This document shows, piece by piece, positions 7,485 to 30,825 of a stretch of 64,000 nt of DNA. The DNA is from a virus. Where the stretch lies: IMG/VR virus record IMGVR_UViG_3300031227_000028, positions 18,857 through 82,856 of that record; one strand, written 5' to 3'. A program made the translations under genes and the position numbers. Positions within the stretch are counted from its first letter, which is position 1. The number at the start of each line of letters is the position of its first letter. The notes under the pieces are model-generated. The model was given only the letters and a program-made list of their open reading frames with translations, had not been told where the DNA came from and searched no databases.

Positions 7485-7495
7485 GGAAATAAAGA

Positions 7496-8764
7496 ATGAA
7501 AATAATAGCAACAATAATGGGACAAAATTGCGAAAAAACATTATCATTATGTTTAAAATCAGTTAAAGATTTCGATGGAATAGTTTATTTAGATGGTGGT
7601 AGTACTGATGATAGTAAATTAATAGCATTAGATTATGATTTAACAATAATTAATAATAAATTTGATAAAAGTAATCCAAATATGATAAGTATTCAAAGAA
7701 ATTATTATCTTAATTATCTTAAAAAAACATATAAAGAAGAATTAGAAGACGTTTTTATTTTAGTTCTTGATGCAGATGAATTTGTTTCAGAAGGAGCTTA
7801 TGAAATATTAAAAAATGATATAAAAAAATTAAAAAGCTATACTGAAGATGGTCAAGGTTTAATGTCAAATATCATAAGTCCAAAAATGCGACATCTTATA
7901 TATAATTTATCTTATGAAGATGCAACTAGAGAAACACATTTTGCACCTAATAGATTATTTAACTTAAAATTTGCTGATAAATATCCAAAAGGAGAACATG
8001 GGATTCTTAATAATTCTGGTACTAGTTATAAATATAGTGGAATTACTATATGGCATTTAGGTTATTTAGGAGGACCATGGGGAATTAAAAAAAGATATGA
8101 CCAACAAATACTTAGAAACACTGGTCACGCAAAACAATATTTAAAAGATTGGAATAAAGCTCATTTATTAGGACATTATCCAATTAAAAAAGTTAATGTT
8201 TTAGATTTACCAAAAATATTATTAGAAAATTTTAGTCTTGATAAAGACGAAATATATTTTGAAGGTAGAGGAATTGAAAGCAAACATTTTATTGATGCTA
8301 TAGATTGGAAAGAATTTTTTAAATGTAAAACAGCATATGAAATTGGTTGCGGAAGAGGTCCAAGAGTTTATGCATTAAATAATATTGGTGTTAAAACTTA
8401 TGGTTGTGATATTAATAAATGGGCTTGTGAGCATAAATTTCATGATAATATTGAACAAATGGATATTACTAAAATAAATTCTTGGAAAAATAAATATGAT
8501 TTAATAATTGCATATGATGTATTGGAACATATTGAAGAAAACGATTTATGGAGAGTAATTGATTATATGAAGTTTGGAACAAGAAAATATATTTTAATAT
8601 CTGTACCAGTAATTGGTGACCTAAATTTAGAAGCTGACCCTACTCATAAAATTAAACAAACAAAAGATTGGTGGATTAAAAAGTTTACAGATAGAGGATT
8701 TAAATTAATTGAAACACCACAACATTTTTTATATAGAAATCAATTAATGATATTTGAGGTTTAA
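7496..8764 (+). CDS. GT2 glycosyltransferase fused to class I SAM-dependent methyltransferase
   Basis: DGGSTD and LDADE in N-terminal half; EIGCGRG and DVLEHI in C-terminal half. Confidence 0.85.
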   Translation: MKIIATIMGQNCEKTLSLCLKSVKDFDGIVYLDGGSTDDSKLIALDYDLTIINNKFDKSNPNMISIQRNYYLNYLKKTYKEELEDVFILVLDADEFVSEGAYEILKNDIKKLKSYTEDGQGLMSNIISPKMRHLIYNLSYEDATRETHFAPNRLFNLKFADKYPKGEHGILNNSGTSYKYSGITIWHLGYLGGPWGIKKRYDQQILRNTGHAKQYLKDWNKAHLLGHYPIKKVNVLDLPKILLENFSLDKDEIYFEGRGIESKHFIDAIDWKEFFKCKTAYEIGCGRGPRVYALNNIGVKTYGCDINKWACEHKFHDNIEQMDITKINSWKNKYDLIIAYDVLEHIEENDLWRVIDYMKFGTRKYILISVPVIGDLNLEADPTHKIKQTKDWWIKKFTDRGFKLIETPQHFLYRNQLMIFEV

Positions 8765-8765
8765 A

Positions 8766-9074
8766 ATGAGCGAAGAAAAATATGTATGCGGAAAGCCAAT
8801 GAATGTTTGTAATGCTGATGGCATTAGCTCTGTAATGAATTATAGACTTAGAACAGAAAAACAAGAAAATTATAAAGATATCCTTGGAACTAGTTATTAT
8901 AAAAAGGAAGATGTTAATAATAATTGTATAAGAAACAAAAAATTATTAGAAGCGATACAAAAAATTAGAGATGATATACATAAATCTCATGGAGATAATT
9001 GTTATCGTGAAGATATGAATTATGTTGGTGCTGATGCTTTAGACGCATTAGAAGAAGAATTAGGTTTAAAATGA
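8766..9074 (+). CDS. Hypothetical protein
   Basis: GAGGT SD before ATG at 8766. Confidence 0.6.
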   Translation: MSEEKYVCGKPMNVCNADGISSVMNYRLRTEKQENYKDILGTSYYKKEDVNNNCIRNKKLLEAIQKIRDDIHKSHGDNCYREDMNYVGADALDALEEELGLK

Positions 9075-11441: not shown

Positions 11442-12074
11442 ATGGAAGAAGAAAAAAATTTATTTGATGAAATGACTAATATACCTGAACAAAAACCAAA
11501 TACAAACAACGATGTATCTGTAGCAGATGCTGTTCAAGAATTAGAAAAAGAAGAGGTAGTGGTTGATTCTGTTTTTGATTATAATAAATTACCAAGCACT
11601 ACAGGTTCTTCATATAATAGAGTTAATTTAGATAATGAAGAAGTTGTAATTAGTAAAGCAGAAATTAAATTACCACATCCTAATTCTGATTGGGTTGAAG
11701 GAAGAACTAATAAAAACATACACTATAAAGGATATCAATTTATTGTAAGTTATGATACTGAAAACGATGACCACGAAAATTATAGCGGTATGAGAGGATT
11801 CCAAAAAACAAACGGTAGTTTAGGTGAACCAACAATTTATACAAAAAAATTAAGCACACAAGCTAGTAAATTATTTGGTAAATTTAAAGAATATATTATA
11901 AGAACTGTTAAAGTTGAAGAAAAAGAAATGACTTCTGATATTTTTGAAGCTTCTTATGGTTTAAAACAATTTATGGCTTTCTTAAATAGTAAACCAAAAG
12001 CTTTACTTAGAGTAATAGAAGTAGATTATGATGGTAAAATTACTGAGAAAAACATGATAAGTAAATTTCTTTAA
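11442..12074 (+). CDS. Hypothetical replication protein, possibly ssDNA-binding
   Basis: Acidic N-terminus, beta-rich aromatic core, lies between primase and helicase; function is a guess from context. Confidence 0.4.
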   Translation: MEEEKNLFDEMTNIPEQKPNTNNDVSVADAVQELEKEEVVVDSVFDYNKLPSTTGSSYNRVNLDNEEVVISKAEIKLPHPNSDWVEGRTNKNIHYKGYQFIVSYDTENDDHENYSGMRGFQKTNGSLGEPTIYTKKLSTQASKLFGKFKEYIIRTVKVEEKEMTSDIFEASYGLKQFMAFLNSKPKALLRVIEVDYDGKITEKNMISKFL

Positions 12075-14273: not shown

Positions 14274-14291
14274 AAAACATTTATATATTAG
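14274..14291 (+). promoter_or_regulatory. TATA promoter of clamp/clamp-loader operon
   Basis: AAAACATTTATATATTAG. Confidence 0.65.
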
Positions 14292-15099: not shown

Positions 15100-16026
15100 A
15101 TGAATATTGACGATTTAAAAAACATTGCATGGATGATTAAATATAGACCAAAAACATTAGATAATGTTGTTGGAAAAGAAGCTAAACTATTGAAAAAATA
15201 TGTTGATAGTAATAATTTACAACATTTTTTACTATCTTCTAGAACACCAGGTACAGGAAAAACAACTTGTGCAAAAGCTATTATTAATGATACTGGAGCA
15301 GATTACATTGAAATAAATAGTAGTGATGAAAGAGGAATAGATGTTATTAGAGATAAAATTAAATTATTTGTTAGTACGATGAGTTCTAAACCTGGTTTAA
15401 AAAAAATTGTATTTTTAGATGAAATGGATTCTATGACTAAAACAGCTCAAGATGCACTTCGTAATATGATGGAGAAATTTATGACTAATGCTATCTTTAT
15501 TCTAACTTGTAATTATATTGAAAAGGTTATTGAACCAATCAAAAATCGTTGTGAAGTTATAGTTTTTGATAGTCCTGATAAAGCAGAGATTAGAAAATAT
15601 TTATTGAATATCATAGATGCTGAAAGCGTTAAATATACTAGTGATGGATTAAATAAATTAATTGATATGAATTATCCAAGTATAAGAGAATCTGTTAATA
15701 CTTTACAAAAGTTTAAAACTATGGATATTGAATTGAATCCTATTAATTTAAAAAAAAATAATGAGAAATTTGATATTTTATGGACAGATATTAAAAGTGG
15801 TAAGGTTTTAAATGTTAGAAAAGAAATCTGTGAAAATAATTATAACCCTGAATTATTATTAAAACATTTTTGGGCAAAAACATATACAGATGAAAAATTA
15901 ACTATAAAACAAAAAATTAAATTAGTATCTGTATTAGCAGATGTTGATTATAAAATGAGTATTGGTGCATCAAAAAATATTCAAATAGATAATATGTTAT
16001 TTAAAATAGTAGGTGCTTTAATATAA
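15100..16026 (+). CDS. rfcS: Replication factor C small subunit (clamp loader ATPase)
   Basis: WxxKYRP, PGTGKTT, INSSDERGID, DEMD, CNY, NRC. Confidence 0.93.
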   Translation: MNIDDLKNIAWMIKYRPKTLDNVVGKEAKLLKKYVDSNNLQHFLLSSRTPGTGKTTCAKAIINDTGADYIEINSSDERGIDVIRDKIKLFVSTMSSKPGLKKIVFLDEMDSMTKTAQDALRNMMEKFMTNAIFILTCNYIEKVIEPIKNRCEVIVFDSPDKAEIRKYLLNIIDAESVKYTSDGLNKLIDMNYPSIRESVNTLQKFKTMDIELNPINLKKNNEKFDILWTDIKSGKVLNVRKEICENNYNPELLLKHFWAKTYTDEKLTIKQKIKLVSVLADVDYKMSIGASKNIQIDNMLFKIVGALI

Positions 16027-16031: not shown

Positions 16032-16526
16032 ATGGATTTATTCAAAACTTTAAATAAAATATATACTGCAAGAGATACTGATTGGGTTAAAGATATTGAT
16101 AGTAATGTGTCAAATGTACCTATTAATATTATTTTATCATATAATATTAAACTTAGTAATGTAGTAGCTTTTTTAGATAAATATACATTTAGATTAGATG
16201 TTAAGAATTTTTGTATATTAGCTTGGGCAATTATACACCCTAAATATAATTCAATGCCTTTTAGTAAAAAAATAAAAGCTAATGAAAAAGAAAATAATAA
16301 ATATCAATTTTTATTAGATAAAATACAAACTAGAATGGAAATATCAAACAATGATTGGGTTGATTCTAAGAATTATTATATTGAAGACATTGAAAGAAGA
16401 ATAACAGATTATTTAACTTTATTTGGTTGTACTAAAAAAGAATGGAAATCAATTGGAATTGATTTTGAAGAATCAAAAAAAATTAATATTGTAGATATAA
16501 AAAAAGGATTAGATAAATGGTTTTAA
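16032..16526 (+). CDS. Probable second clamp-loader subunit (T4 gp62-like position)
   Basis: Directly follows RFC; C-terminal PIP-like KKGLDKWF. Confidence 0.5.
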   Translation: MDLFKTLNKIYTARDTDWVKDIDSNVSNVPINIILSYNIKLSNVVAFLDKYTFRLDVKNFCILAWAIIHPKYNSMPFSKKIKANEKENNKYQFLLDKIQTRMEISNNDWVDSKNYYIEDIERRITDYLTLFGCTKKEWKSIGIDFEESKKINIVDIKKGLDKWF

Positions 16527-16530
16527 TTAA

Positions 16531-16627
16531 CAAAACATTTATATATTATATATGTAATAAATAATTATATTGATAGGAGACTGTTACTCCTAATCAAATA
16601 GAACAAAAAAAATACGGAGATATAAAA
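16531..16627 (+). promoter_or_regulatory. TATA promoter and hairpin leader of yhhQ-TGT-TGT-GNAT-polB operon
   Basis: AAAACATTTATATATTA; hairpin 16570-16597; GGAG SD 16616-16619. Confidence 0.6.
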
Positions 16628-17278
16628 ATGATAAATGAAATAATAATAACTTACAAATTTTTTGGTAAGAGAGGCTTATTTGTATTCACAGGTATAGCAA
16701 TAATCTTAGCAAATATACAAGTTTTGAAAACAGTACAATTATTTGGAATGGTTGCAACATTAGGTAATGTTATATATGGATGTTCTTTTTTGATAACAGA
16801 TATATTATCTGAAAATCATGGGAAGAAAGATGCTAAGACAGCTGTTATAATAGGATTGTCTGCAGCAATAATATCAACTGTTATAATGTATATATGTACT
16901 TTATTCGTTCCACATTCAAGTGATTTCGCTAGTGGGGCTTTATCAACAATTTTTAGTGTTATGCCAAGAATAATGATTGCATCTTTAATAGCATATACAA
17001 TATCTAACTTTAATGATGTACATATATTCCATAAAATAAAAGCTAAAACAGGAGATAAACATCTTTGGATTAGAAATATTGGTTCAACATTTTCAAGTCA
17101 ATTATTAGATACAGTAATTTTTAGTGTAATAGCTTTCTGGGGAATGTTTAGTAGAGATATATTTATTCAAATAATGTTAACTACATATATTATGAAAATT
17201 GTAACAGCAGCTTTAGATACACCTTTCCTTTATCTTGCTAAATGGATGAAGAAAAATGGTCATGTGAGTGAGGAATAA
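16628..17278 (+). CDS. yhhQ: Queuosine-precursor (preQ0/preQ1) transporter, YhhQ/VUT family
   Basis: ANIQVLK, TLGNVIY, FLITDILSE.HG, R..IASL.AY, LWIRNIGST..SQLLDT, DTPFLY; multiple TM helices. Confidence 0.92.
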   Translation: MINEIIITYKFFGKRGLFVFTGIAIILANIQVLKTVQLFGMVATLGNVIYGCSFLITDILSENHGKKDAKTAVIIGLSAAIISTVIMYICTLFVPHSSDFASGALSTIFSVMPRIMIASLIAYTISNFNDVHIFHKIKAKTGDKHLWIRNIGSTFSSQLLDTVIFSVIAFWGMFSRDIFIQIMLTTYIMKIVTAALDTPFLYLAKWMKKNGHVSEE

Positions 17279-17279
17279 A

Positions 17280-18431
17280 ATGGATAGAAATTTTTTTGAA
17301 GAGAATAAATTAGTATATTTGCCAGCAACCCTTCCATCTGCTGAGTTATGTATAAATAATGATGAACCAACTGCAAAACAACCTCACTTTTGGAATAAAG
17401 AAACATCAATATGGTACTATCCAAATTTATTAATTAGTGCATATCATGCAGATAAAATTGAAGATATTAGAAAATTAATGGGAATAGATAAAGATGTAAA
17501 AATTCTTTATGATAGTGGAGGTTACCAAATGGTAACCTTAGGAGGAAATATTAATCCTAAAGATTTAATAGAATTACAATTAAAAAATTCTAATGCTGGC
17601 CTTATATTAGATAATCCTCCTTTTAAAATAGGATTAGGAAATTCACAGTTTGGTGAATCAATGAATGAAGATGAAATATCAATATGTCTTAATAAAACAA
17701 AAGAGAATGCTAAAATTGCAATGGCTAATAATATAGGACCAAATAAAATTAGATTATATGGTGTAGTGCAAGGAGAATCATGGGAACAAATTAATAGATG
17801 GTATGATTCAATGCATGAATTAGAAGAAGAATATGGAAAATTTGATGCCTGGGCAATGTCACCAAAACCATCAACAATAGCATTATATGGAATTTTATTA
17901 TTAGAAAGAAAAATTAAAACCCCAATACATTTTTTACAGGCTACAAGTAGAGAAGCAATATCCACTACCGCATATATTAGAAAATTATCAAAAAATTTGA
18001 TAACTATTGATAGTTCAAATTTTTCATCTGGTACAAGATATGGAAGAATAATAAATTATGAGCATTTAGGTATATTTGATATAGGCGAAGGAAAAAGAGA
18101 AAAAAATAAAAAAGGTTGGTTTTGTGATTGTCCTATTTGTAGAGAAAGAAAAATTGATATTGAAAATTTATCAACAACAGATTTAAAATATATAAATATT
18201 CATAATTTATATCAAATAGTTAAAATTGTAAAAGTTGCAGATTGGTTAGTTGATTATAGTGAAGTAATGTTTTTTAATTGGATTAAGAAATTTAAATCAT
18301 CATGCACTGGTGCAATTAAAATGTTACAATTTTATGATAAATATGGATTAGAAAGAACTAAATTAAATTACTCAGATATATTCACAGCAAATGATAATAT
18401 AGTAAATCAAAAAGGTTTATTTGATTTTTAA
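17280..18431 (+). CDS. tRNA-guanine transglycosylase/DpdA superfamily protein, paralogue 1
   Basis: DSGGYQ, ILD, GVVQG, TIDSS, CDCPIC...HN; C-terminal QKGLFDF; start moved to the ATG after GAGGA. Confidence 0.85.
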   Translation: MDRNFFEENKLVYLPATLPSAELCINNDEPTAKQPHFWNKETSIWYYPNLLISAYHADKIEDIRKLMGIDKDVKILYDSGGYQMVTLGGNINPKDLIELQLKNSNAGLILDNPPFKIGLGNSQFGESMNEDEISICLNKTKENAKIAMANNIGPNKIRLYGVVQGESWEQINRWYDSMHELEEEYGKFDAWAMSPKPSTIALYGILLLERKIKTPIHFLQATSREAISTTAYIRKLSKNLITIDSSNFSSGTRYGRIINYEHLGIFDIGEGKREKNKKGWFCDCPICRERKIDIENLSTTDLKYINIHNLYQIVKIVKVADWLVDYSEVMFFNWIKKFKSSCTGAIKMLQFYDKYGLERTKLNYSDIFTANDNIVNQKGLFDF

Positions 18432-18456
18432 ATTATATAGATTAGGAGAAAATAAA

Positions 18457-19602
18457 ATGAAAAGAACATTTTTTGAAAATAATAAATTAGTTTTTATCCC
18501 TGCAATTTTACCTAATAAAGATCTTTTTGGTAAAGAAACAGATAAATATTCTTTTTTTTCTGATAAGTCTTTATATTTTTATCCTAATGTTTTAATTAGT
18601 GCATATCACGGGAAACATTTAGATATTAGGAAAGAATTAGAATGTAATGATAATGTTATGATTTTAGGTGATTCAGGTGGATTTCAAGCAGTAACTTTAG
18701 GTGGCGATATAAACGCTAAAGAAGTTATTAAATGGCAAATGAATAATTGTAATGCTGGTTTAATACTTGATAAGCCTCCATATAAATTTGGTGGAACAGC
18801 GCAATTTGCAGGTACACCATCTAAAGAATTTTTTAATGAATGTTTAGAAAAAACAAAACAAAATGCTTTAATAGCTCTTGAACATAATAAAGGCGAAAAG
18901 AAAATTAGATTATATGGAGTAATTCAAGGCGAAACATGGGAACAAATGAAACAATGGTATGAAACAATATCATCAATTCAAACAAATGAGAAAAAATTTG
19001 ATGCATGGGCATTATCACCAAAACCATCAAATGATGTTTTTAAAATTGCAATGCTTGGTATTTTATGTTTAGAAAAAAAAATAGATACACCATTGCATAT
19101 ACTTCAAATTTCAAATCGTCCTGGAATAATAGTTGCTGCTTTAATAAGATTTTGTATTCAACAAACAGTAACTATAGATAGTTCTTCTCCTTCAAAAGCA
19201 TCACGTTTTGGGGAAATATATAATCCATATACATTTTTAGCAGAAATTAAAACCGGGCAAAGAAGACCAAAAGAAAAAATGAATGGATGGATGTGTGATT
19301 GCCCAATATGTCAAGCAACTAATATATCTTTTAATGATGTTGAAAATAAAAATTATGAAAATATTTTGGATTTACATAATTTATATCAAATAGTGCGTTT
19401 TGTAAAATATATGGATTGGGTAGTACAAGATAAAGAAATATTAATGAAAATGGTAAAAACTGTTTCAATTAATGCTTATAATGCAATTGAAATGATTTAT
19501 TATTATAAAGAATATGGATTAGAAAGAACTAAATTAAAATATCCAAATGTATTTGAATCAAATAATGATGCATCAAATCAAAAAGGATTATTTGAATTTT
19601 AA
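18457..19602 (+). CDS. tRNA-guanine transglycosylase/DpdA superfamily protein, paralogue 2
   Basis: DSGGFQ, ILD, GVIQG, TIDSS, CDCPIC...HN; C-terminal QKGLFEF; AGGAG SD. Confidence 0.85.
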   Translation: MKRTFFENNKLVFIPAILPNKDLFGKETDKYSFFSDKSLYFYPNVLISAYHGKHLDIRKELECNDNVMILGDSGGFQAVTLGGDINAKEVIKWQMNNCNAGLILDKPPYKFGGTAQFAGTPSKEFFNECLEKTKQNALIALEHNKGEKKIRLYGVIQGETWEQMKQWYETISSIQTNEKKFDAWALSPKPSNDVFKIAMLGILCLEKKIDTPLHILQISNRPGIIVAALIRFCIQQTVTIDSSSPSKASRFGEIYNPYTFLAEIKTGQRRPKEKMNGWMCDCPICQATNISFNDVENKNYENILDLHNLYQIVRFVKYMDWVVQDKEILMKMVKTVSINAYNAIEMIYYYKEYGLERTKLKYPNVFESNNDASNQKGLFEF

Positions 19603-19611
19603 GGTAATAAA

Positions 19612-20085
19612 ATGGCTGTGAAACAAGAAACATATGATAAATGGATAGCTAAATATGGTCCAAATGCAAGAATTGGTTTAGATATTATAGGTAAATGTAA
19701 TTTATATCCTAAAGAATTAGGGAGAATATTTTTACCTACAATAACAGAGGCAATTAAAAAAAATAATTGTTATATAATTGATGATAGGAATTGGGTATTT
19801 TTTAATTATAATAAAAAATTAAATAAAATGAAACTTCAATATATATTATCAATGGACCATAAAGGAACTATTTTATTAAAACATCTTGAATCAATTTGTG
19901 CAGAAAGACATATTCCTATAATTTATTTAACTGTTGTTGCAGGAATGCCAGCAGTTGATTGGTATTATAAAAAAGGTTTTATAAAAGTTAAAGAAAGACA
20001 TTCAAGGAAGGGAACTTTATTGTTTGATGTTGAGAAGAAGTTTTTTAAAATAGGTTTAGAGAAATGGTATAAAAATGAAATATAA
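19612..20085 (+). CDS. GNAT-fold acyltransferase-like protein
   Basis: KGTILLKHLE and IYLTV...PAVDWYYKKGF (motifs A/B-like); near-terminal KIGLEKWY. Confidence 0.65.
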   Translation: MAVKQETYDKWIAKYGPNARIGLDIIGKCNLYPKELGRIFLPTITEAIKKNNCYIIDDRNWVFFNYNKKLNKMKLQYILSMDHKGTILLKHLESICAERHIPIIYLTVVAGMPAVDWYYKKGFIKVKERHSRKGTLLFDVEKKFFKIGLEKWYKNEI

Positions 20086-22192
20086 ATCGCAAATAGACAA
20101 AATGATTAGTAATTGTTTGGTATATGATATAGAAACAAGCGCTAGTTATCCTGATGGTAAACCAATAAACATTAAAACAGATTTTAAAAATTATATTAAA
20201 TATGCAATAGTTAAATGGGTAGGTTTTTATTCTTATAAATATAATAAATATTATGAATATAATGCTATTATACAACTTGATGAAATTGACCAAATGTTTA
20301 AAGACCATAGACATATTATTGGTATAAATAATATAGAATTTGATACTCCTATTTGTATGAATAATAATATTATAAAACAATATCAACATAAACAAATAGA
20401 TTTACAGGTTATTCTTGGAAATAATTTATTACAAGGGCATAAAAATAGAGCAACATTTATGGGTGTAAATTTAAAAAAAATTATTATTAATGATAAAGAA
20501 TATGGACCTAATACTTTAATGAGTTTAGCTTATCATTTTAATTTACCAGTATTAAAAGGAGATATAGATTATAATATATTTTTTAAAAATCATTGGGATG
20601 AAAAAGAAACTAAAAATATTATTAAATATTTACATGGTGATATAGAAGTAACTAAATTATTATTTGATAAAGTAATTAATTTCTGGACTATATTTACAGA
20701 TTGGTTATATATTGAAGATGTAGAAAAATGGGCTTGGTTAAAAAGTAGTATTGCCAGTTTAACTTATCTTGCAGCATGTAAAGTTAAAAATGTTTTACCA
20801 ACATATGGAAGTATAGGAGAAACTGAAGATATGGGTGGAAGAGCAGTAATGCCTATTAAAGATGAAATATATAATGTTCATTATTTAGATGAAGCATCTA
20901 AATATCCACATATATTTGCTCAGTTTAATTTATTTAGTGAAGTAGATATATCAAGTTATACTAATGAACAAATTGAAAAAGCAATTGCAAATAATATAAT
21001 ATGGCATGGCAATGATAAATTTAAAGTTAAAGGATATTATTATATAAAAGAACAATCTATATTAGCTAAAGATGTATTAAATAAATTAAAAACAAGAATA
21101 GCTGTTAAGAAAATACTTAAAAAAGATAAAAATGGTAAATATATTAATATTGATGAACATAATTATATGAAAATAGAAATTGACCCATTGTTAAAAGATT
21201 TTATATTTGATAAACAATTATCTGATTATATTATAAATTCATTAAATGGATTACAATATGCTATTAAAATCTTTTTAAATTCATTATATGGTGCAGTTAG
21301 AAGTGGAATATTTGAACAAATACATACTCCTAATGCTGGATATGATTGTTGTTGGATTGGTCAACAAATTCATGAAAAAGTTGAAAAAGAATTTAAAGAC
21401 CGTGGATATGACACAGTAGGTGGATTTACAGATTCCTGGTTTATAGAAAAAAAAGAAGGAGATACTAGAGAATTAATGATTAAATATTGTAAAACTATAA
21501 TGAACAAATTAAAAGAATCATTTATTTTTCCTGCAGATACACATATAATTGATTATGAATGTTTTATGGATTATTTATTATATAATAAAGATAAGAAAAA
21601 TGAATATAAAAAAAATAATTATTGTTTCATATCTAATGGTAAAGTTAAAGTTGTAGGATTTCCTATAAAAAAAAGTAATTCATCTAAACTAGGAAATATA
21701 ATACTTAATAAATATATTATTCTAGAAGGATTAAAAAGAAATAATTTAAAATTTAAAAAGAAATATTTTGATAATATAATTGCAGAAGAATTAAAAAATG
21801 ATATTACTTTATCTGCTGTTGTTTTTAAATGTAATCCATCAATAACTTATAAAAAAATAAATCAATTACAAGCACAAGTAAGTCGAGCATATTTTGATGG
21901 TTTAGGTGGAGAAATAGCTATAATTAAAAATAAAAAATTTGGTAAAGTAGGAAAAACAAATAAATATTGTACTATAAAAGAAGCAATAGAAAATAATATA
22001 CAAGTTGAAGATTTAGATTTAACTAAATTATTTAATGAACTTAATCCATTTATTAGAAAAGAAAAAGATATGGATTTATTTAGTTTTGTTGGTGGTGATG
22101 ATAATTTATTTGATGAAAAAGTTGATGAAAAAGTTGATGAAAAAGTTGATGAAAAAGTTGAAACAAAAACGGGGCTAGATAAATGGTTTTGA
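20075..22192 (+). CDS. polB: Family B DNA polymerase with 3'-5' exonuclease
   Basis: YDIET, N..FD, Y...D; DEASKYP, KIFLNSLYG, FTDS; C-terminal KTGLDKWF. Confidence 0.9.
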   Translation: MKYKSQIDKMISNCLVYDIETSASYPDGKPINIKTDFKNYIKYAIVKWVGFYSYKYNKYYEYNAIIQLDEIDQMFKDHRHIIGINNIEFDTPICMNNNIIKQYQHKQIDLQVILGNNLLQGHKNRATFMGVNLKKIIINDKEYGPNTLMSLAYHFNLPVLKGDIDYNIFFKNHWDEKETKNIIKYLHGDIEVTKLLFDKVINFWTIFTDWLYIEDVEKWAWLKSSIASLTYLAACKVKNVLPTYGSIGETEDMGGRAVMPIKDEIYNVHYLDEASKYPHIFAQFNLFSEVDISSYTNEQIEKAIANNIIWHGNDKFKVKGYYYIKEQSILAKDVLNKLKTRIAVKKILKKDKNGKYINIDEHNYMKIEIDPLLKDFIFDKQLSDYIINSLNGLQYAIKIFLNSLYGAVRSGIFEQIHTPNAGYDCCWIGQQIHEKVEKEFKDRGYDTVGGFTDSWFIEKKEGDTRELMIKYCKTIMNKLKESFIFPADTHIIDYECFMDYLLYNKDKKNEYKKNNYCFISNGKVKVVGFPIKKSNSSKLGNIILNKYIILEGLKRNNLKFKKKYFDNIIAEELKNDITLSAVVFKCNPSITYKKINQLQAQVSRAYFDGLGGEIAIIKNKKFGKVGKTNKYCTIKEAIENNIQVEDLDLTKLFNELNPFIRKEKDMDLFSFVGGDDNLFDEKVDEKVDEKVDEKVETKTGLDKWF
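22112..22159 (+). repeat. 12-bp tandem repeat x4 (DEKV linker before PolB PIP motif)
   Basis: GATGAAAAAGTT x4. Confidence 0.95.
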
Positions 22193-22323
22193 ATTATTGT
22201 AGAAGATGTGGAAGAAAACTTAATAGCGATAAAGATTATGGGCCAGTATGTTTAAAAAAAGTTATATTTGAAAGAAGTTTAAATAAAGATTTACTTGTTG
22301 ATTTTGAGGTTGAAGATGTTTGA
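22183..22323 (+). CDS. Small Zn-finger protein (46 aa, DUF6011-like; not in ORF track)
   Basis: CRRCGRKL...YGPVC. Confidence 0.6.
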   Translation: MVLNYCRRCGRKLNSDKDYGPVCLKKVIFERSLNKDLLVDFEVEDV

Positions 22324-22822
22324 AGATTTAGAAGAACCAAAAATAAAAGCTATTAAGAAAAAACGTAAGAAACAAATATTAGAAGGATTATTTTCTCAAT
22401 CTATAAAAAAATATCCTAATTTATTAGGACATAAATTACATAATAACCCTTTAGCCCATCAAACTACTCATGCTGATTTTGAAGTATTAAATAAAAATGG
22501 TAATATTTATTTTGTTGAAGCAAAAGAATCTAAATTAAATGATAAAGGATATGGTTCATTTGCATTTAAAAGATTAACTCAAAGAAATTCTTTAATTTTT
22601 TATTCTAATTTTTCTAATTATACTTTTAGTTTTATACTGTTATTCTTTCGTTCTAACACTATGGAAAAATCAAGGTGTTTTGCTATACCTATAGAAAAAT
22701 GGTGCGAATTTGAGCAAGTAATAGGCAAGAAATCAGCTAATATACACGATATAAATGAAAATTTTGCTGATTATATATTAGAATACAGTAATAAACAGTT
22801 TAATCTAATGTTCTTATGTTAA
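22316..22822 (+). CDS. PD-(D/E)xK nuclease, Holliday junction resolvase-like (Hjc/RecU)
   Basis: E...HADF...FVEAKES; GAGGT SD before ATG 22316. Confidence 0.7.
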   Translation: MFEDLEEPKIKAIKKKRKKQILEGLFSQSIKKYPNLLGHKLHNNPLAHQTTHADFEVLNKNGNIYFVEAKESKLNDKGYGSFAFKRLTQRNSLIFYSNFSNYTFSFILLFFRSNTMEKSRCFAIPIEKWCEFEQVIGKKSANIHDINENFADYILEYSNKQFNLMFLC

Positions 22823-26893: not shown

Positions 26894-27354
26894 AAACTAT
26901 AGAAGAATTACAAAAACGTTTAGAAGGTGCCTTTAAACATAGTAATTTTTTTGATTCTTTACATGAAGTTAATGAAGTAAAAAAAGTTATTGGTGCAAAG
27001 GAATTAACTAAATTTTTAAAAAAGAAAATTAATATTATAAAAAAAGAAAAAAGAGAATATAATTTAAAAGTCAAAAATATTAGAATTAAATATGGTTCAT
27101 TTAACGAATATATATATGAAGAAGCTTTACAATATATAACTCATAGTTATAAAGTAGGAGAAATTGTTGTTGTTGAATATTGTGATTCATATAAAGCCCT
27201 TAAAATACATAAAATAACAAAAAAAGGTTATGATTTATGGGATGGAAATAAATTGGCCACAATAATGAAAATACCAGAATCTAGTATATTAGGTTATGGA
27301 CATAATTTAAATAAAATAATTAAAGAAAATGACAAAAAGAAGGTCAAAAATTAA
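26890..27354 (+). CDS. Hypothetical protein
   Basis: ATGA overlap; 154 aa. Confidence 0.6.
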   Translation: MKTIEELQKRLEGAFKHSNFFDSLHEVNEVKKVIGAKELTKFLKKKINIIKKEKREYNLKVKNIRIKYGSFNEYIYEEALQYITHSYKVGEIVVVEYCDSYKALKIHKITKKGYDLWDGNKLATIMKIPESSILGYGHNLNKIIKENDKKKVKN

Positions 27355-27448
27355 TTCAACTTTTTTTCTTGATATAATTGGTGAAGATAAAGTTGATAAA
27401 AAGAAATATAAAAAAACAGATAAATATAAACCCAACGATTATTTTATG

Positions 27449-27485
27449 TAAATAATATTATTTAATACAAACATTTATATATTAG
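27449..27485 (+). promoter_or_regulatory. tRNA operon A promoter (16-bp palindrome + TATA)
   Basis: TAAATAATATTATTTAATACAAACATTTATATATTAG, identical to 29030-29066. Confidence 0.85.
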
Positions 27486-27498
27486 TTGTTATATTATT

Positions 27499-27567
27499 AT
27501 GAATATGTATAAGACAACAAGTTTAACCAATATGTGTATGAGTAATTTATTACTTGCGTCATTTTAG
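27499..27567 (+). CDS. Putative leader peptide A, MNMYKTTSLTNMCMSNLLLASF
   Basis: Starts near the predicted TSS; 19/22 residues are M/N/L/S/A/T/C, the amino acids of operon A tRNAs. Confidence 0.65.
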   Translation: MNMYKTTSLTNMCMSNLLLASF

Positions 27568-27618
27568 TTATAACTATGTTGTTAAGCTTATTCTTTTTAT
27601 TTATCTGTTTAACAACAG
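27509..27618 (+). promoter_or_regulatory. Attenuator-like alternative hairpins, operon A
   Basis: ATAAG/CTTAT, ACAACA/TGTTGT, GAGTAA/TTACTT stem followed by U-tract; rival pairing TGTTGTTAA(27577)/TTAACAACA(27609). Confidence 0.6.
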
Positions 27619-27640
27619 GTTGAAATATATTAAAATTTAT

Positions 27641-27716
27641 AGAAGTGTAGGCTAGTCAGGTCAAAGTCACGCGGCTCATGACCGTGAGAACGTTGGTTCA
27701 AATCCGACCACTTCTA
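27641..27716 (+). tRNA. tRNA-Met(CAT), A1:U72, initiator-like
   Basis: Cloverleaf; CGCGG-CT CAT GA-CCGTG; no encoded CCA. Confidence 0.9.
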
Positions 27717-27736
27717 TTTTGTTTAAATGTACATTT

Positions 27737-27821
27737 AAATAAACGTGATAAAAATAATTACCTACCGTTTAGAAACGAAAGGAGGAGTGATTCCCTCGTT
27801 GCAAGGAATTATTGTTTATTT
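27737..27821 (+). ncRNA. Candidate multi-stem RNA between tRNA-Met and tRNA-Asn
   Basis: AAATAAAC/GTTTATTT, AATAATT/AATTATT, CCT/AGG enclosing CGTTT/AAACG and GAGG/CCTC hairpins. Confidence 0.35.
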
Positions 27822-27826
27822 TTATT

Positions 27827-27897
27827 GCCGATGTAGTATAATGGTATTATACCTGGCTGTTGACCAGATGATAGGGGTTCAATTCCCTTCGTCGGCG
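27827..27897 (+). tRNA. tRNA-Asn(GTT)
   Basis: GCCGATG/CGTCGGC; CT GTT GA loop. Confidence 0.92.
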
Positions 27898-27903
27898 TTT
27901 TAT

Positions 27904-28024
27904 ACGTGTGTGGCTGATTGGTAAAAGCGCTGGACTTAGAATGAAAATTCGTCTACAAGATGTTTTTACATAAGTTATCCAGTTTCCTAAGTGGATGTTG
28001 TGTGTTCAATTCATACCACACGTA
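27904..28024 (+). tRNA. tRNA-Leu(TAG) with 36-nt BHB intron (27941-27976)
   Basis: ACGTGTG/CACACGT; long variable arm; intron at 37/38 with CTTA/TAAG helix and GAA/TTA bulges. Confidence 0.9.
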
Positions 28025-28031
28025 TTTTTAT

Positions 28032-28115
28032 GCTACGATGGCTCAATATGGCACAGCAACAGATTGCTAATCTGTGAGACAATAACTCTTTTCGGTTCAA
28101 ATCCGAATCGTAGCG
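28032..28115 (+). tRNA. tRNA-Ser(GCT)
   Basis: GCTACGA/TCGTAGC; long variable arm; G73. Confidence 0.92.
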
Positions 28116-28116
28116 T

Positions 28117-28204
28117 TGAAGGAGAAGCTAAAAATGGTCTTATTGGAAGCAAGAGGCAATGCTTGACGAAGAGAAACTTATAACTGTAGCGGGTTATACA
28201 TTCA
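28117..28204 (+). ncRNA. Candidate structured RNA between the two tRNA-Ser genes
   Basis: TGAA/TTCA closing; TCTT/AAGA + AAGCA/TGCTT arm; TATAAC/GTTATA arm. Confidence 0.3.
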
Positions 28205-28213
28205 TTATTTTTT

Positions 28214-28294
28214 GCTAACAAAGCGAATGGTAAGCGTGCCGTCTTGAAAACGGTTGGTCCTTGCGGCTCGTCAGTTCGAATCTGGCTGTTAGCG
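28214..28294 (+). tRNA. tRNA-Ser(TGA)
   Basis: GCTAACA/TGTTAGC; CT TGA AA; long variable arm; A at position 8. Confidence 0.88.
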
Positions 28295-28323
28295 TTATTA
28301 AAATAAAAAAAATATAAATTATT

Positions 28324-28397
28324 GGGCGAATAGTTAAATCTGGTATAACGTCCCGCTTGCAACGGGGAGGCTTCGGGTTCAAATCCCGATTTGTCCA
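28324..28397 (+). tRNA. tRNA-Ala(TGC)
   Basis: G3:U70 identity pair; CT TGC AA. Confidence 0.93.
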
Positions 28398-28406
28398 TAT
28401 ATTAAA

Positions 28407-28607
28407 ATGAGTTATGATAAAAATCATACAAAAGACGATTGTGATAAATGTCTTGAAAGGGTTGGAAAAGAAAATTTAACACCTATTAAGTTTTTATATC
28501 TTGATAGGAATGATTTAATGCATCCTGATTATTATCATAACGCAACTAAAGCACAAAAAGATTACAAATTATATTATGTTTGTAAAAATTGTTTAAAAAA
28601 TTATTAA
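28407..28607 (+). CDS. Small Zn-binding protein inside tRNA operon A
   Basis: CDKC...CKNC; exactly fills the Ala-Thr spacer. Confidence 0.65.
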   Translation: MSYDKNHTKDDCDKCLERVGKENLTPIKFLYLDRNDLMHPDYYHNATKAQKDYKLYYVCKNCLKNY

Positions 28608-28608
28608 T

Positions 28609-28682
28609 GCACGTGTGGCACAGTGGTCTACTGCGTCTGCCTTGTAAGCAGAATTACCCCAGTTCAAATCTGGGTACGTGCT
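28609..28682 (+). tRNA. tRNA-Thr(TGT)
   Basis: GCACGTG/TACGTGC; CT TGT AA. Confidence 0.93.
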
Positions 28683-28688
28683 TTTTAT

Positions 28689-28760
28689 GCATCATTGGGC
28701 AAGTGGTAAGTCGTCTGTCTGCAAAACAGAAGAACCCCGGTTCAATTCCGGGATGATGCT
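28689..28760 (+). tRNA. tRNA-Cys(GCA)
   Basis: GCATCAT/ATGATGC; U73. Confidence 0.93.
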
Positions 28761-28761
28761 T

Positions 28762-29046
28762 ATGGTAAAATATAAAAAAAAATATGGGCATGAATATCCA
28801 ACATTAACAGTTCCAATGAAATCACTTCAAGAAGAAAATTTATTTATTAATCCTTATTGGAATGAATGGAATACTCAAAAAGATAGTTTAAGAGTTATAT
28901 GTGATAATAAAAAAATAGTTAAACAAAATAAAAATAGAATACATAAATTTTCAGTTTGGGATATTAGAGAAAAAGGAATACAAGAAAAAAATAAAAAAAA
29001 ATTAATTATAAGAAAGAAAAGAAAATTATTAAATAATATTATTTAA
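28762..29046 (+). CDS. Basic hypothetical protein (94 aa) ending operon A
   Basis: ATG 2 nt after tRNA-Cys; the track's upstream extension overlaps tRNAs. Confidence 0.6.
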   Translation: MVKYKKKYGHEYPTLTVPMKSLQEENLFINPYWNEWNTQKDSLRVICDNKKIVKQNKNRIHKFSVWDIREKGIQEKNKKKLIIRKKRKLLNNII

Positions 29047-29066
29047 TACAAACATTTATATATTAG
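29030..29066 (+). promoter_or_regulatory. tRNA operon B promoter (16-bp palindrome + TATA)
   Basis: 37/37 identical to 27449-27485. Confidence 0.85.
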
Positions 29067-29106
29067 ATATGGTTTTATATAATTATAATAAATAATCTTA
29101 ATATTA

Positions 29107-29304
29107 ATTTATTAAGAAATATTAAATAACTAGATAATTATAGGTGTTATCCCAATCATATTAAAATGAACATACAAGAATGGAGACAGGACGGGGAAAG
29201 AGGCTTTGACATAGTGTTTAAGCCTATCTATCGTTAGTCCTTCCATGGTTCATATCAATTTCTAAATAAATAAAAAAGAACATTGGCCATGTGCCATGGA
29301 ATTC
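29107..29304 (+). promoter_or_regulatory. Attenuator-like alternative hairpins, operon B
   Basis: ATGAAC/GTTCAT, ATGGA/TCCAT, AGGAC/GTCCT, AGGCTT/AAGCCT; rival pairing TTCCATGG(29241)/CCATGGAA(29294). Confidence 0.6.
29166..29237 (+). CDS. Putative leader peptide B, MNIQEWRQDGERGFDIVFKPIYR
   Basis: AAAATG context; residues 3-23 all belong to the operon B tRNA set. Confidence 0.65.
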   Translation: MNIQEWRQDGERGFDIVFKPIYR

Positions 29305-29318
29305 TAAAAAAAATATAC

Positions 29319-29389
29319 AGTCGTATAGTTTAATGGTAAAATTATCCGTTTACACCGGATGGCTATGAGTTCAATTCTCATTGCGACTA
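29319..29389 (+). tRNA. tRNA-Val(TAC)
   Basis: AGTCGTA/TGCGACT; TT TAC AC. Confidence 0.9.
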
Positions 29390-29403
29390 TAATAAACCTT
29401 TAT

Positions 29404-29476
29404 GCTCTAATGGTCTAGTGGACAATGACATCTGGCTTTCGACCAGAAGACCTGAGTTCAATTCTCGGTTGGGGTA
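29404..29476 (+). tRNA. tRNA-Glu(TTC)
   Basis: CT TTC GA; acceptor stem with three G:U pairs. Confidence 0.88.
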
Positions 29477-29482
29477 CTTTAC

Positions 29483-29557
29483 TGGGTGGTGGTCTAGTTT
29501 GGCTAAGACTCTCGACTTGGACTCGAGAAACCGGGGGTTCAAATCCTCCCCATCCAA
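29483..29557 (+). tRNA. tRNA-Pro(TGG)
   Basis: CTCGA-CT TGG AC-TCGAG; U1:A72; A37. Confidence 0.88.
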
Positions 29558-29567
29558 TATTTATTTT

Positions 29568-29639
29568 GCCTGTGTAGTGTAATGGCTATCACATGAGACT
29601 GTCTATCTCAAAATTTGGGTTCAATTCCCAGCATGGGCG
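29568..29639 (+). tRNA. tRNA-Asp(GTC)
   Basis: GCCTGTG/CATGGGC; G73; U37. Confidence 0.9.
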
Positions 29640-29643
29640 TTAT

Positions 29644-29718
29644 GGAAGTATAGCTTAATCTGGTTAAAGCACCGGTCTTATATACCGTTGAATCTGGGTT
29701 CAAATCCCAGTATTTCCA
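29644..29718 (+). tRNA. tRNA-Ile(TAT)
   Basis: GGAAGTA/TATTTCC; CT TAT AT. Confidence 0.9.
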
Positions 29719-29723
29719 TTTAT

Positions 29724-29796
29724 GGACGTATGGCTAAGTGGTTAAGGCAGTCGACTGATATTCGAAAGAACACCGGTTCAAATCCGGTTATGTCCA
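29724..29796 (+). tRNA. tRNA-Ile(GAT)
   Basis: GGACGTA/TATGTCC; CT GAT AT. Confidence 0.9.
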
Positions 29797-29802
29797 TTTT
29801 AT

Positions 29803-29912
29803 GCACCCATAGTCTAAACTGGAAGGGCTCTTGGCTTCGATACAATTGTATGGCTAGTAAGACGCTTTTTTGAAGATACCAAGGTATCCGGGTTCAAATC
29901 CCGGTGGGTGCT
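29803..29912 (+). tRNA. tRNA-Arg(TCG) with 37-nt BHB-like intron (29841-29877)
   Basis: GCACCCA/TGGGTGC; intron at 37/38 with CTTC/GAAG helix and GAT/ATA bulges. Confidence 0.88.
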
Positions 29913-29917
29913 TTTAT

Positions 29918-29991
29918 GTGAATGTAGCAAAACGGTTTAATGCACTCGACTTTTAATCGAGAGACTGAGGGTTCAAATCCCTTCATTCACA
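29918..29991 (+). tRNA. tRNA-Lys(TTT)
   Basis: GTGAATG/CATTCAC; CT TTT AA. Confidence 0.93.
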
Positions 29992-29998
29992 TTTTTAT

Positions 29999-30071
29999 AG
30001 GGTAGTGGTCTAGTGGACAATGACATCTGACTTTGGATCAGAAAACGGCAGTTCAATTCTGCCCTACCCCA
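29999..30071 (+). tRNA. tRNA-Gln(TTG)
   Basis: CT TTG GA; A1-C72 mismatch. Confidence 0.9.
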
Positions 30072-30076
30072 TAATT

Positions 30077-30148
30077 GCTTGCATAGCATAACGGTTAATG
30101 CTTCAGGTTGTGGTCCTGATAATCTGGGTTCAATTCCCAGTGTAAGCT
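30077..30148 (+). tRNA. tRNA-His(GTG)
   Basis: GCTTGCA/TGTAAGC; no encoded G-1; U73. Confidence 0.9.
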
Positions 30149-30155
30149 TTTTAAT

Positions 30156-30228
30156 GGACATATAGCATAATGGGAGTGCGCTGAGCTGAAGCCTCAGTAT
30201 TGTTGGAGTTCGACTCTCCATATGTCCA
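30156..30228 (+). tRNA. tRNA-Phe(GAA)
   Basis: GGACATA/TATGTCC; CT GAA GC. Confidence 0.92.
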
Positions 30229-30238
30229 TCATATTAAA

Positions 30239-30745
30239 ATGGCATACGAACTATATAAAATAAAAAAGGATAAAGAAAATTATTTTAAAGATTGGTCTAG
30301 TGATAAACTTTTAACTTTAACTGACGAAATAAAAGAAGTAGTCTATAAAAAGTATTTAGTTAAATGTGATGTTTTTAAAAGAGATAATTATAGTTGTCAA
30401 AATATTAATTGTAAAAATTTAAATAGTCCATTAACAATGCATCATGTTAAATTTCAAAAAAATGGTGGAGAACATAAAATAAAAAATTGTGTAACTTTAT
30501 GTGAACCATGTCACGTTTTATTTCATAGAGCTAGAACAGCAATTACTTATAAAAATAATAAATATCTTCCTATTCATATTAGAGGTAAAACTTTTATGTT
30601 AGATAGACAAGATAAAATTAACTGGAAAGAAATTAAAAGTCATATGAGAAAACTTAGAAAAACTTTAAGAAAAGAAAGAATTTATTTAAGTTGGAAAGAT
30701 ATGAATTTATTAATGAAATTTTTAGAATTAAATTTTGAAGATTAG
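30239..30745 (+). CDS. HNH endonuclease inserted in tRNA operon B
   Basis: VFKRDNYSCQ...C, TMHHV...GG...NCVTLCEPCH...H; start moved to the ATG after tRNA-Phe. Confidence 0.85.
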   Translation: MAYELYKIKKDKENYFKDWSSDKLLTLTDEIKEVVYKKYLVKCDVFKRDNYSCQNINCKNLNSPLTMHHVKFQKNGGEHKIKNCVTLCEPCHVLFHRARTAITYKNNKYLPIHIRGKTFMLDRQDKINWKEIKSHMRKLRKTLRKERIYLSWKDMNLLMKFLELNFED

Positions 30746-30750
30746 TTTAT

Positions 30751-30825
30751 GTATCTGTAGTGTAGTTTGGTCTATCATCTGGGACTTCCAATTCTGGGAC
30801 GTGGGTTCGAATCCCACCGGGTACA
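30751..30825 (+). tRNA. tRNA-Gly(TCC)
   Basis: GTATCTG/CGGGTAC; A73; G:U-rich anticodon stem. Confidence 0.85.

Follow-up and report, generated by a model that had tools for sequence, protein, structure and literature searches.

We analyzed a 64,000-nucleotide stretch of viral DNA (the window; bases 18857-82856 of the 82,856-bp IMG/VR record IMGVR_UViG_3300031227_000028), in which genes for a sliding clamp and a family B DNA polymerase (PolB) enclose two paralogues of the tRNA-guanine transglycosylase (TGT) superfamily, TGT1 and TGT2. Direct terminal repeats bound the record, whose first and last 100 nt are identical; CheckV rates it 100% complete, and its GC content is 26%. This 83-kb genome is that of a complete tailed virus. 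The region from the clamp to PolB is organized as two tightly packed units on the + strand, each with an exact AAACATTTATATAT box ahead of it (Table 1). Five neighboring products of these units end in short peptides that resemble the PCNA-interacting peptide (PIP) by which replication proteins bind their clamp. A preliminary description of the region, made from the letters of the DNA, had proposed that the TGTs and their neighbors ride the viral clamp and exchange guanines in nascent DNA, using a salvaged precursor.

Table 1. Genes and promoter-like boxes of the clamp-to-PolB region (positions in the window)
Feature	Position	Strand	Unit	C-terminal tail (position)	Basis or remark
Promoter-like box AAACATTTATATAT, clamp operon	14275..14288	+	1		exact match
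PCNA-like sliding clamp, 234 aa	14347..15051	+	1		NF002222, PCNA profile
Clamp-loader ATPase, RFC small / T4 gp44 type	15100..16026	+	1		NF001679 1e-65; phrog_168 4e-66; Pfam AAA, Rep_fac_C
164-aa protein	16032..16526	+	1	KKGLDKWF (16500-16523)	3' of clamp and RFC genes
Promoter-like box AAACATTTATATAT, YhhQ-TGT1-TGT2-GNAT-PolB operon	16533..16546	+	2		exact match; downstream genes abut or overlap
YhhQ/Vut_1 queuosine-precursor (preQ0/preQ1) transporter	16628..17278	+	2		TIGR00697, Pfam Vut_1
TGT1, DpdA-like transglycosylase, 383 aa	17280..18431	+	2	QKGLFDF (18408-18428)	PF01702
TGT2, DpdA-like transglycosylase, 381 aa	18457..19602	+	2	QKGLFEF (19579-19599)	PF01702, AF2 fold
Putative GNAT-fold acyltransferase, 157 aa	19612..20085	+	2	KIGLEKWY (20047-20070), then KNEI	Atlas model, near-threshold Pfam
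PolB, family B DNA polymerase, 705 aa	20075..22192	+	2	KTGLDKWF (22166-22189)	L001 homologue, readable motifs

Five neighboring proteins share PIP-like C-terminal tails

The five C-terminal motifs are present in the sequence exactly as the preliminary description had read them. The GNAT does carry its motif, but not at the extreme end, since its last 4 residues, KNEI, follow it and are encoded where the gene overlaps that of PolB, which starts at 20075. Likewise, the idea of a single shared tail holds as a common pattern, [K/Q]xGLxx[W/F], found at or no more than 4 residues from the C-terminus of the five products encoded between 16032 and 22192, but this pattern resolves into two classes: KxGL[D/E]KW[F/Y] in the clamp-loader-like 164-aa protein, the GNAT and PolB, and QKGLF[D/E]F in TGT1 and TGT2. 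Across the 21,070 residues of open reading frames (ORFs) in the whole 82,856-bp genome, [KQ]xGLxx[WF] occurs six times, and five of these six occurrences fall in the last 14 residues of the five neighbors; 2000 shuffles gave on average 0.02 occurrences and never more than 2. Since the motif was defined after seeing the data, this comparison gives no clean P value, and conservation is the better test.

Homologues keep the tails. Among close homologues of the TGTs (31-53% identity to TGT2), 14 of 16 have a C-terminal tail of the Qxx[LIV]F type, for example QNSLFDF, QTNIFNF, QKNIFSF or QTKLFDF. In a 14-sequence alignment, Q375 is conserved in at least 90% and F379 is invariant, and the linker ahead of them is variable. 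An exhaustive TGT profile search returned 1535 clusters, 310 of them at E ≤ 1e-30. A census of the wider family drew on the best 150 hits of a 50%-identity cluster search, keeping the 148 representatives that reach 330 aa. The pattern hxxAr (h, hydrophobic; Ar, aromatic) lies within the last 9 residues of 49% of them, against a background of 19-24%, and the stricter [QKST]xxhxxAr is present in 36%, against 4-9%. Anchored at the end, the TGT-family consensus is K-Q-x-S/N-L-F-D-F-COOH. Homologues of PolB keep an hxxW tail in all six related contigs (ALTEWF, SLDDWGL, EIDKWCK, SLNQWFK, SLEAWCDV and ELRQWANI), and the GNAT orthologues of L002 and L013, which end in FKIGLEQYEI and KMKNILDF, retain a hydrophobic/aromatic tail. 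Co-variation between TGT and PolB tails was considered and rejected for this lineage, which has two stable classes, QxxhFxF and hxxW, instead.

The tails are variants of the PIP type, which reads Qxx[LIVM]xx[FWY][FWY] or similar at a terminus, those of the TGTs having the Q, the L and one aromatic residue. The archaeal PIP consensus usually lies at the extreme C-terminus and has short variants, including QLTLF in Sso PolB1 and a single aromatic residue in Afu RNase HII (PMC3504372), and the tails fit this range. In the AlphaFold2 (AF2) model of TGT2, the last ~11 residues have a predicted local distance difference test score (pLDDT) of 61-66, with 86-99 in the preceding domain. The PIP likeness put forward in the preliminary description is thus borne out among orthologues, with a variable linker, predicted flexibility and occurrence on PolB and the loader-like subunit; the five tails are conserved, PIP-like and flexible, and from their sequences they look functional.

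Three further products have ends of a similar kind. A 423-aa fusion of a GT2 glycosyltransferase and an S-adenosylmethionine (SAM) methyltransferase at 7493-8764 (+) ends in QLMIFEV, of the Qxx-h-F type like the TGTs. A 210-aa protein of the replication module at 11442-12074 (+) ends in KNMISKFL, and a 175-aa protein encoded directly after PolB at 22295-22822 (+) ends in KQFNLMFLC; neither has a Pfam match, and by sequence reading the latter looks like a nuclease.

The haloarchaeal virus HVTV-1 (KC117377; L012/L014) provides a second case. Its DpdA4, HVTV1_69, ends in NVLEF, its RFC-L in SVLDF, its N6-adenine DNA methyltransferase in DVLDF, its PolB in GVLSW and the 150-aa HVTV1_99 in DVLGF (the proteins compared were HVTV1_69, _87, _89, _91 and _99). 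VLx[F/W] C-termini are found on these five annotated proteins and on one ORF that is probably spurious, out of 134 ORFs (100 aa or longer) in the first 70 kb. The same tail arrangement, methyltransferase included, thus recurs with a DpdA subfamily and an archaeal virus that are both unrelated to those studied here. In HVTV-1 the TGT-type and PolB tails are of the same class, unlike in the virus studied here. The DNA of HVTV-1 carries dPreQ1 (10.1101/2023.04.13.536721).

TGT1 and TGT2 are members of the TGT superfamily

The two paralogues are 47% identical, and both keep every catalytic and Zn residue. For TGT1, a start at GTG 17268 was rejected, as homologues support ATG 17280; TGT2 starts at ATG 18457, as do its database homologues. 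The AF2 model of TGT2 (pLDDT 92.7) has the TIM-barrel TGT fold with a Zn subdomain and matches the archaeosine-type enzyme ArcTGT (1iq8; VIA Z 25.8, root mean square deviation 3.2 over 302 residues), human TGT (7nq4; Z 25.5) and the Z. mobilis TGT (Z ~24.8). Across 78 sequences, D72 (in DSGGF/YQ), D105 (in GLILDxPP), H214, D241 (in TIDSS) and the Zn-site H307 are invariant, and the Zn-site residues C280, C282 and C285 are conserved in at least 90%. Alignments of hidden Markov models (HMMs) match DSGGFQ, and also the stretch following D241, to the corresponding TGT motifs. In Salmonella DpdA, D95, D130 and D256 are essential as acid/base, recognition residue and nucleophile (PMC10164549), and D72, D105 and D241 of TGT2 match these three. 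On sequence and predicted structure, TGT1 and TGT2 are true TGT-superfamily enzymes.

TGT1 has a Tyr in the gate motif (DSGGYQ), a feature shared by TGT1-type proteins, and it groups in the tree with P0003/L013 (support 88/85), so the TGT duplication is older than this virus. The paralogues may differ in base or sequence specificity, or may form a heterodimer.

Within the superfamily, the pair lies far from characterized members. Solved TGTs are distant by profile (ArcTGT, 7.7e-7; bDpdA 7ui4, 4e-3), and bDpdA 7ui4 is absent from the top 50 fold matches, which is not evidence for a different fold. The nearest viral models in BFVD are unnamed proteins, followed by DpdA2 of nt-1 (R9TGF0; E 1e-12, TM 0.53), DpdA3 of phiST (E 4e-5) and, weakly, DpdA4 of HCTV-1 (E 8e-3). 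By tblastn, a TGT-domain protein of Vibrio phage GR7B is 26% identical (E 2e-5); it has 538 aa and a Lys-rich tail. A scan of a viral contig collection with the single TGT2 protein gave no match. Membership in DpdA4 (PF20314, DUF6610) was rejected, as Pfam at E ≤ 0.01 gives PF01702 as the only family for both paralogues. We treat TGT1 and TGT2 as a putative separate DpdA-like clade, distant from DpdA1-4.

Relatives encode a preQ pathway, and this virus encodes a transporter

The relatives examined are L001, a 69-kb contig from a metagenome-assembled genome (MAG) labeled "uncultured archaeon"; L003, from a Woesearchaeota MAG; L002, a 9.9-kb contig binned as Bacilli; and L004-L006 from IMG/VR. 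In all five relatives with upstream sequence (L001, L002, L004, L005 and L006), the TGT gene stands beside a cluster of QueE, FolE, QueC, QueD and QueF, with QueF directly 5' of TGT or separated from it by a GNAT gene and nothing else. In 7 of 7 genomes, PolB follows TGT on the same strand within 1.4 kb, and the two genes often overlap. In L001, counterparts of the clamp, loader and 164-aa genes are present as well. G004 (98% complete) retains the module with neither a PCNA nor a tRNA gene; its tails would thus need the host clamp, and its TGT would not be serving viral tRNAs.

The virus itself has none of these biosynthetic genes. In the complete genome, HMM searches found no FolE, PTPS (QueD), radical SAM (QueE), QueC or QueF, and tblastn with the preQ enzymes of the relatives gave no match. 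Its YhhQ is well supported as a precursor transporter, matching TIGR00697 at E 1.2e-61 (208 bits against an equivalog cut-off of 50.95), NF008406 (preQ0/preQ1 transporter) at 1.4e-16 and Pfam Vut_1 at 5.8e-50 (170 bits against 27.2). Three points of the preliminary description are upheld by these results: the DpdA-like setting of the TGTs, seen in the relatives' QueD/E-FolE-QueC-QueF cluster directly upstream of PolB; the position of YhhQ at the head of its operon, with the exact box at 16533 directly ahead and packed genes downstream; and the absence of folE and queC/D/E, which extends beyond the window to the complete genome. The salvage inference holds genome-wide, since the complete genome lacks the preQ pathway yet has YhhQ, and precursor salvage via YhhQ is plausible. 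Archaeal viruses that carry YhhQ, and archaeal viruses with DpdA only, were already known (PMC8651126).

The preQ clusters of the relatives hold additional genes. In L002, the gene for the radical SAM enzyme QueE (435-2213) is split by an intein with Hint/intein-splicing domains, and a small phosphoribosyltransferase follows at 2315-2707. FolE of L006 (5913-6770) has an N-terminal extension that weakly matches a phosphoribosyltransferase domain (E 1.2e-5, under the Pfam cut-off), and L001 encodes a 192-aa protein (8460-9038) with weak glutamine-amidotransferase similarity. These extra genes in L001, L002 and L006 may point to further deazaguanine chemistry.

The clamp, its loader and the polymerase

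The clamp matches NCBIfam NF002222 over residues 7-222 at E 2e-13, with a score under NCBIfam's curated cut-off. A profile built from three homologues matched 85 solved PCNAs over the full length (residues ~11-239; best 1.6e-12), and all of the 60 solved chains listed for it are PCNAs or archaeal sliding clamps. Its AF2 model, made from a three-sequence alignment, is poor (pLDDT 49.9), with the N-terminal domain alone usable; in a fold search, residues 1-117 of this model matched DNA clamps and nothing else (Z 10-12).

The 164-aa protein has no Pfam match even at E ≤ 10, and a word-based homologue search found zero relatives for it. A homologue in L001 is 37% identical and keeps the end GLDAWF. 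The ESM Atlas gave a lead to PF16790, Phage_clamp_A (features 0.90, structure TM 0.51/0.63). In phage T4, the gene order 45-44-62 corresponds to clamp, ATPase and small subunit, and the 164-aa gene likewise follows the loader ATPase directly, as gp62 follows gp44. On the model-based lead and this position, the 164-aa protein is probably a gp62-type clamp-loader A subunit. The preliminary description had given its tail correctly and left the protein unnamed; its identity is now refined to this probable loader subunit, an expected clamp client. This protein and PolB are used as internal positive controls, since both are expected clamp binders and carry the same KxGLDKWF peptide as the GNAT, a peptide closely related to that of the TGTs. 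In L008 (Woesearchaeota MAG, contig C4), a second viral-looking module of clamp, RFC and small protein was seen, whose 123-aa product, encoded after RFC, lacks a PIP-like tail.

PolB of the window itself has no Pfam match. Its homologue in L001 is 31% identical (BLAST 1e-53) and matches Pfam DNA_pol_B at 1.9e-21, and the PolB sequence contains Exo I (DIETS), motif B (NSLYG) and a motif C-like segment (FTDS). A perfect (DEKV)x4 repeat at 22100-22165 (+) forms a charged linker before the PolB tail.

A putative GNAT-fold protein accompanies the TGTs

The GNAT scores just under the cut-off of Pfam Acetyltransf_10 (E 2e-4; 21.7 bits against 23.6), its Atlas model has TM 0.73 to GNAT clusters, and its orthologue P0018 carries PF13673. 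A YYKKGF motif is conserved, and the pyrophosphate-binding loop is degenerate (KKG[ST]I). The word-based search found one relative, and the GNAT alignment matched one 1.5-kb contig in a metagenome contig collection and none in the viral contig collection. Orthologues stand directly after TGT in L002 and L013, and in L001 an unrelated GNAT lies between QueF and TGT. A GNAT thus adjoins TGT in four genomes, from two unrelated lineages (this virus, L002 and L013; L001), which argues for a functional link with the TGT/preQ1 module. L004-L006 have QueF and, in the stretch seen, no GNAT.

Genome, host setting and other genes

The AAACATTTATATAT box has four exact copies in the window (14275, 16533, 27469 and 29050), each intergenic and 5' of + strand genes. 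It resembles an archaeal B recognition element (BRE)/TATA element, and we infer a promoter role. Both tRNA operons are preceded by the same box as the clamp and YhhQ units. These operons, found by ARAGORN in the scanned region 27000-31500, comprise 20 tRNA genes at 27640-30985 (+), including a tRNA-Ile(UAU) beside a tRNA-Ile(GAU) and only one tRNA-Met. Downstream of them, at 32856-34220 (+), lies the gene for a CCA-adding enzyme of class II that has an HD domain. Three glycosyltransferase genes stand in a row at 34765-38867 (+), of the GT1, GT2 and GT4 families (the last with a "GT4-conflict" match); this run closes the early/middle region, and DNA, the capsid or the host envelope are candidate targets.

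The stretch is carried by salt-lake metagenome runs (X1, the probable source, 0.98; X2, 0.77; X3, 0.45), and no RNA run is among the sequencing runs listed as carrying it. The viral proteins are non-acidic, with D+E roughly equal to K+R. The low GC, the non-acidic proteins, the salt-lake recurrence, the promoter boxes, the affinities of PCNA and RFC and the labels of the relatives' MAGs together favor as probable host a low-GC archaeon outside the salt-in halophiles, perhaps a member of the DPANN.

Discussion

The reading that we favor, with a probability of roughly 55%, is that this region is a replication and DNA modification module in which clamp-docked, DpdA-like enzymes would make 7-deazaguanine DNA co-replicatively from a salvaged base. 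Through their tails, the enzymes would attach to the hydrophobic pocket of a clamp that stays behind on freshly synthesized duplex; this clamp would be the viral PCNA or, in relatives that encode none, the host PCNA. TGT1 and TGT2 would be DNA-guanine transglycosylases of the DpdA kind, swapping guanine in viral DNA for a 7-deazaguanine by means of the conserved Asp nucleophile and Asp acid/base. The inserted base would most likely be preQ1, the base measured in HVTV-1, since the relatives always pair this TGT with QueF. The FolE-QueD-QueE-QueC-QueF pathway carried by the relatives would have been lost here, the free base being imported via YhhQ. Tethered to the clamp, the enzymes would modify DNA processively and in step with replication, and their action could in this way be aimed at viral DNA; the GNAT would be a member of the same clamp-docked set.

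Several observations weigh against this reading. The tails of the TGTs are without the second aromatic residue (position 8) of the canonical PIP box, and K replaces the canonical Q in those of the loader-like protein, the GNAT and PolB. A recognizable tail is missing from about half of the family's distant representatives, some of those without it being fragments or fused forms, and two TGT homologues from bacterial phages have other C-termini. The fold cannot tell DNA from tRNA as the substrate, since the family lies as far from tRNA TGTs as from bacterial DpdA, and the 20 tRNA genes of the virus could in principle supply TGT substrates. The assignment of the host to a domain draws only on promoter-like boxes, on the affinities of PCNA and RFC, and on the labels of the relatives' MAGs, of which one is Bacilli.

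These points bear on what the enzymes act upon and on what the tails bind. Under one alternative, the paralogues would be tRNA-guanine transglycosylases, fed by YhhQ and placing archaeosine- or queuosine-type bases in viral or host tRNAs, with tails unrelated to their substrate; the viral tRNA set does include the G34 tRNAs for Asn, Asp, His and Tyr, with a CCA-adding enzyme in the same window; the nearest solved structures, ArcTGT and human TGT, are also tRNA enzymes. Yet both TGTs stop after the catalytic/Zn domain: the model aligns to residues 22-353 of ArcTGT (chain 577-582) and to no others, so there is no counterpart of the ArcTGT C-terminal part. Relatives keep the TGT-PolB-preQ module in genomes without any tRNA gene, the 98% complete one included, TGT is translationally coupled to PolB, and on a tRNA enzyme a PCNA-type tail would make no sense. 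Every viral TGT homologue examined to date acts on DNA (10.1101/2023.04.13.536721), and we consider a tRNA role the least probable of the alternatives weighed here. It is also very unlikely, in our judgment, that the shared tails bind another hub, such as a viral single-stranded DNA-binding protein (SSB), a helicase or the clamp-loader ATPase, or that they are a degradation or packaging signal. C-terminal acidic/aromatic tails do serve SSB-centered networks elsewhere, and the two tail classes could mean two receptors; but K-Q-x-x-L-F-x-F at the extreme C-terminus is the pattern of PIP and clamp binding, the carriers include PolB and a clamp-loader-like subunit, which are textbook clamp clients, the tail-bearing genes adjoin the clamp gene, and HVTV-1 has the same tail on RFC-L and PolB.

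The role of the GNAT is less clear. The preliminary description had suggested that it acylates the amine of preQ1, a speculative idea that draws some support from the adjacency to TGT and the coupling to QueF. In its full form, the clamp-docked GNAT would N-acylate the preQ1 aminomethyl group, in the free base or as dPreQ1 in DNA, and yield an N-acetyl-type 7-deazaguanine that would be new to DNA; a PCNA toolbelt of PolB, the two DpdA-like enzymes and the GNAT would make it co-replicatively from a precursor imported by the viral YhhQ. We hold this proposal with little confidence. That the GNAT leaves the deazaguanine alone, and is instead a protein acetyltransferase docked on the clamp, with chromatin proteins, PCNA or replication proteins on nascent DNA as its targets, or a Mom-like acylase of another base, seems possible though doubtful. 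GNAT-fold enzymes acetylate the archaeal chromatin protein Alba, and Mom of phage Mu modifies adenine in DNA. The nearest structural neighbors are generic protein and N-terminal acetyltransferases of the RimI and NatA types (TM 0.63-0.76), and the GNAT-free stretches of L004, L005 and L006, with their TGT and QueF, speak for a separate substrate as well. Against it stand the recurrence of two unrelated GNAT lineages beside TGT and the fact that the known hypermodifications of dPreQ1, methyl and formyl, hit the same amine (10.1101/2023.04.13.536721). The observed pattern fits acylation of the preQ1 amine, a clamp-docked protein acetyltransferase and a Mom-like base modifier equally well.

If the clamp-docked reading is right, it would help to explain how DpdA enzymes reach a high modification density before host nucleases act, and how they pick viral over host DNA. 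A clamp-docking peptide on DpdA-like enzymes offers a concrete mechanism, modification on the sliding clamp at the fork, and would be a viral counterpart of the coupling of eukaryotic DNMT1 to PCNA. A large TGT clade linked to QueF and PolB also emerges from the analysis (the 310 clusters at E ≤ 1e-30, with no named member among those identified), as does a salvage-only version of the system, consisting of YhhQ and two TGTs with no pathway, and the GNAT is nominated as a possible new dPreQ1-decorating enzyme.

Comparison with known systems

The presence of DpdA marks viruses with 7-deazaguanine DNA (10.1101/2023.04.13.536721). With the viral DpdA systems (bDpdA and DpdA1-4; PMC6884629; 10.1101/2023.04.13.536721), this virus shares a virus-encoded TGT-superfamily enzyme with the three catalytic and recognition Asp residues. 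It differs from them in its tandem paralogues, conserved PIP-type tails, constant coupling to PolB and zero biosynthesis genes, and TGT1 and TGT2 are only remotely similar to DpdA2 (nt-1) and DpdA3 (phiST). The published view of DpdA modification is simply that it is "post-replicative," and our literature search found no paper that ties DpdA or 7-deazaguanines to PCNA, PIP motifs or sliding clamps. DpdM and DpdN hypermodify dPreQ1 with a methyl and a formyl group, respectively, the formylated fdPreQ1 giving a reported 324-Da signal (10.1101/2023.04.13.536721). The GNAT resembles them as an accessory gene next to DpdA/QueF in a subset of genomes and as a candidate decorator of the preQ1 aminomethyl group, but its fold would imply acyl transfer from acyl-CoA; the same search found no report of acetylated dPreQ1 or of a DpdA-GNAT link.

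The tails themselves are like those of archaeal PCNA clients such as PolB, the RFC large subunit, FEN1 and RNase HII (PMC3504372), which have a short Qxx-h-xx-aromatic C-terminal peptide on a flexible linker. Here, however, the carriers include base-exchange enzymes and a GNAT, which are not known clamp clients. In eukaryotic maintenance methylation at the fork by DNMT1 (PMC5264654, PMC9570017), a DNA-modifying enzyme is likewise brought to new DNA via a PCNA-binding motif; the enzyme, the chemistry and the domain of life are different, and DNMT1 copies existing marks, whereas the viral system would install a protective base de novo.

The T4 gp45 toolbelt offers a parallel in gene order, clamp-loader ATPase-small subunit-...-polymerase, and also has C-terminal clamp-binding peptides on several proteins. 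The clamps differ, that of this virus being PCNA-like by profile, while gp45 appears only in the fold search with the N-terminal domain (Z 6.7). For T4, the alpha-glucosyltransferase was proposed to bind gp45, which would be a phage DNA-modifying enzyme riding the clamp as suggested here; this interaction was not reproduced in vitro or in vivo (2025 preprint, 10.64898/2025.12.06.692756). The T4 proposal was based on a pull-down, and ours is based on a conserved sequence motif; with the sole earlier claim of a clamp-bound phage DNA-modifying enzyme contested, a clear sequence signature is useful. Viral DpdA systems, PIP recruitment and PCNA-coupled DNA methylation are each known separately, and the proposed link between DpdA and the clamp would be the new part.

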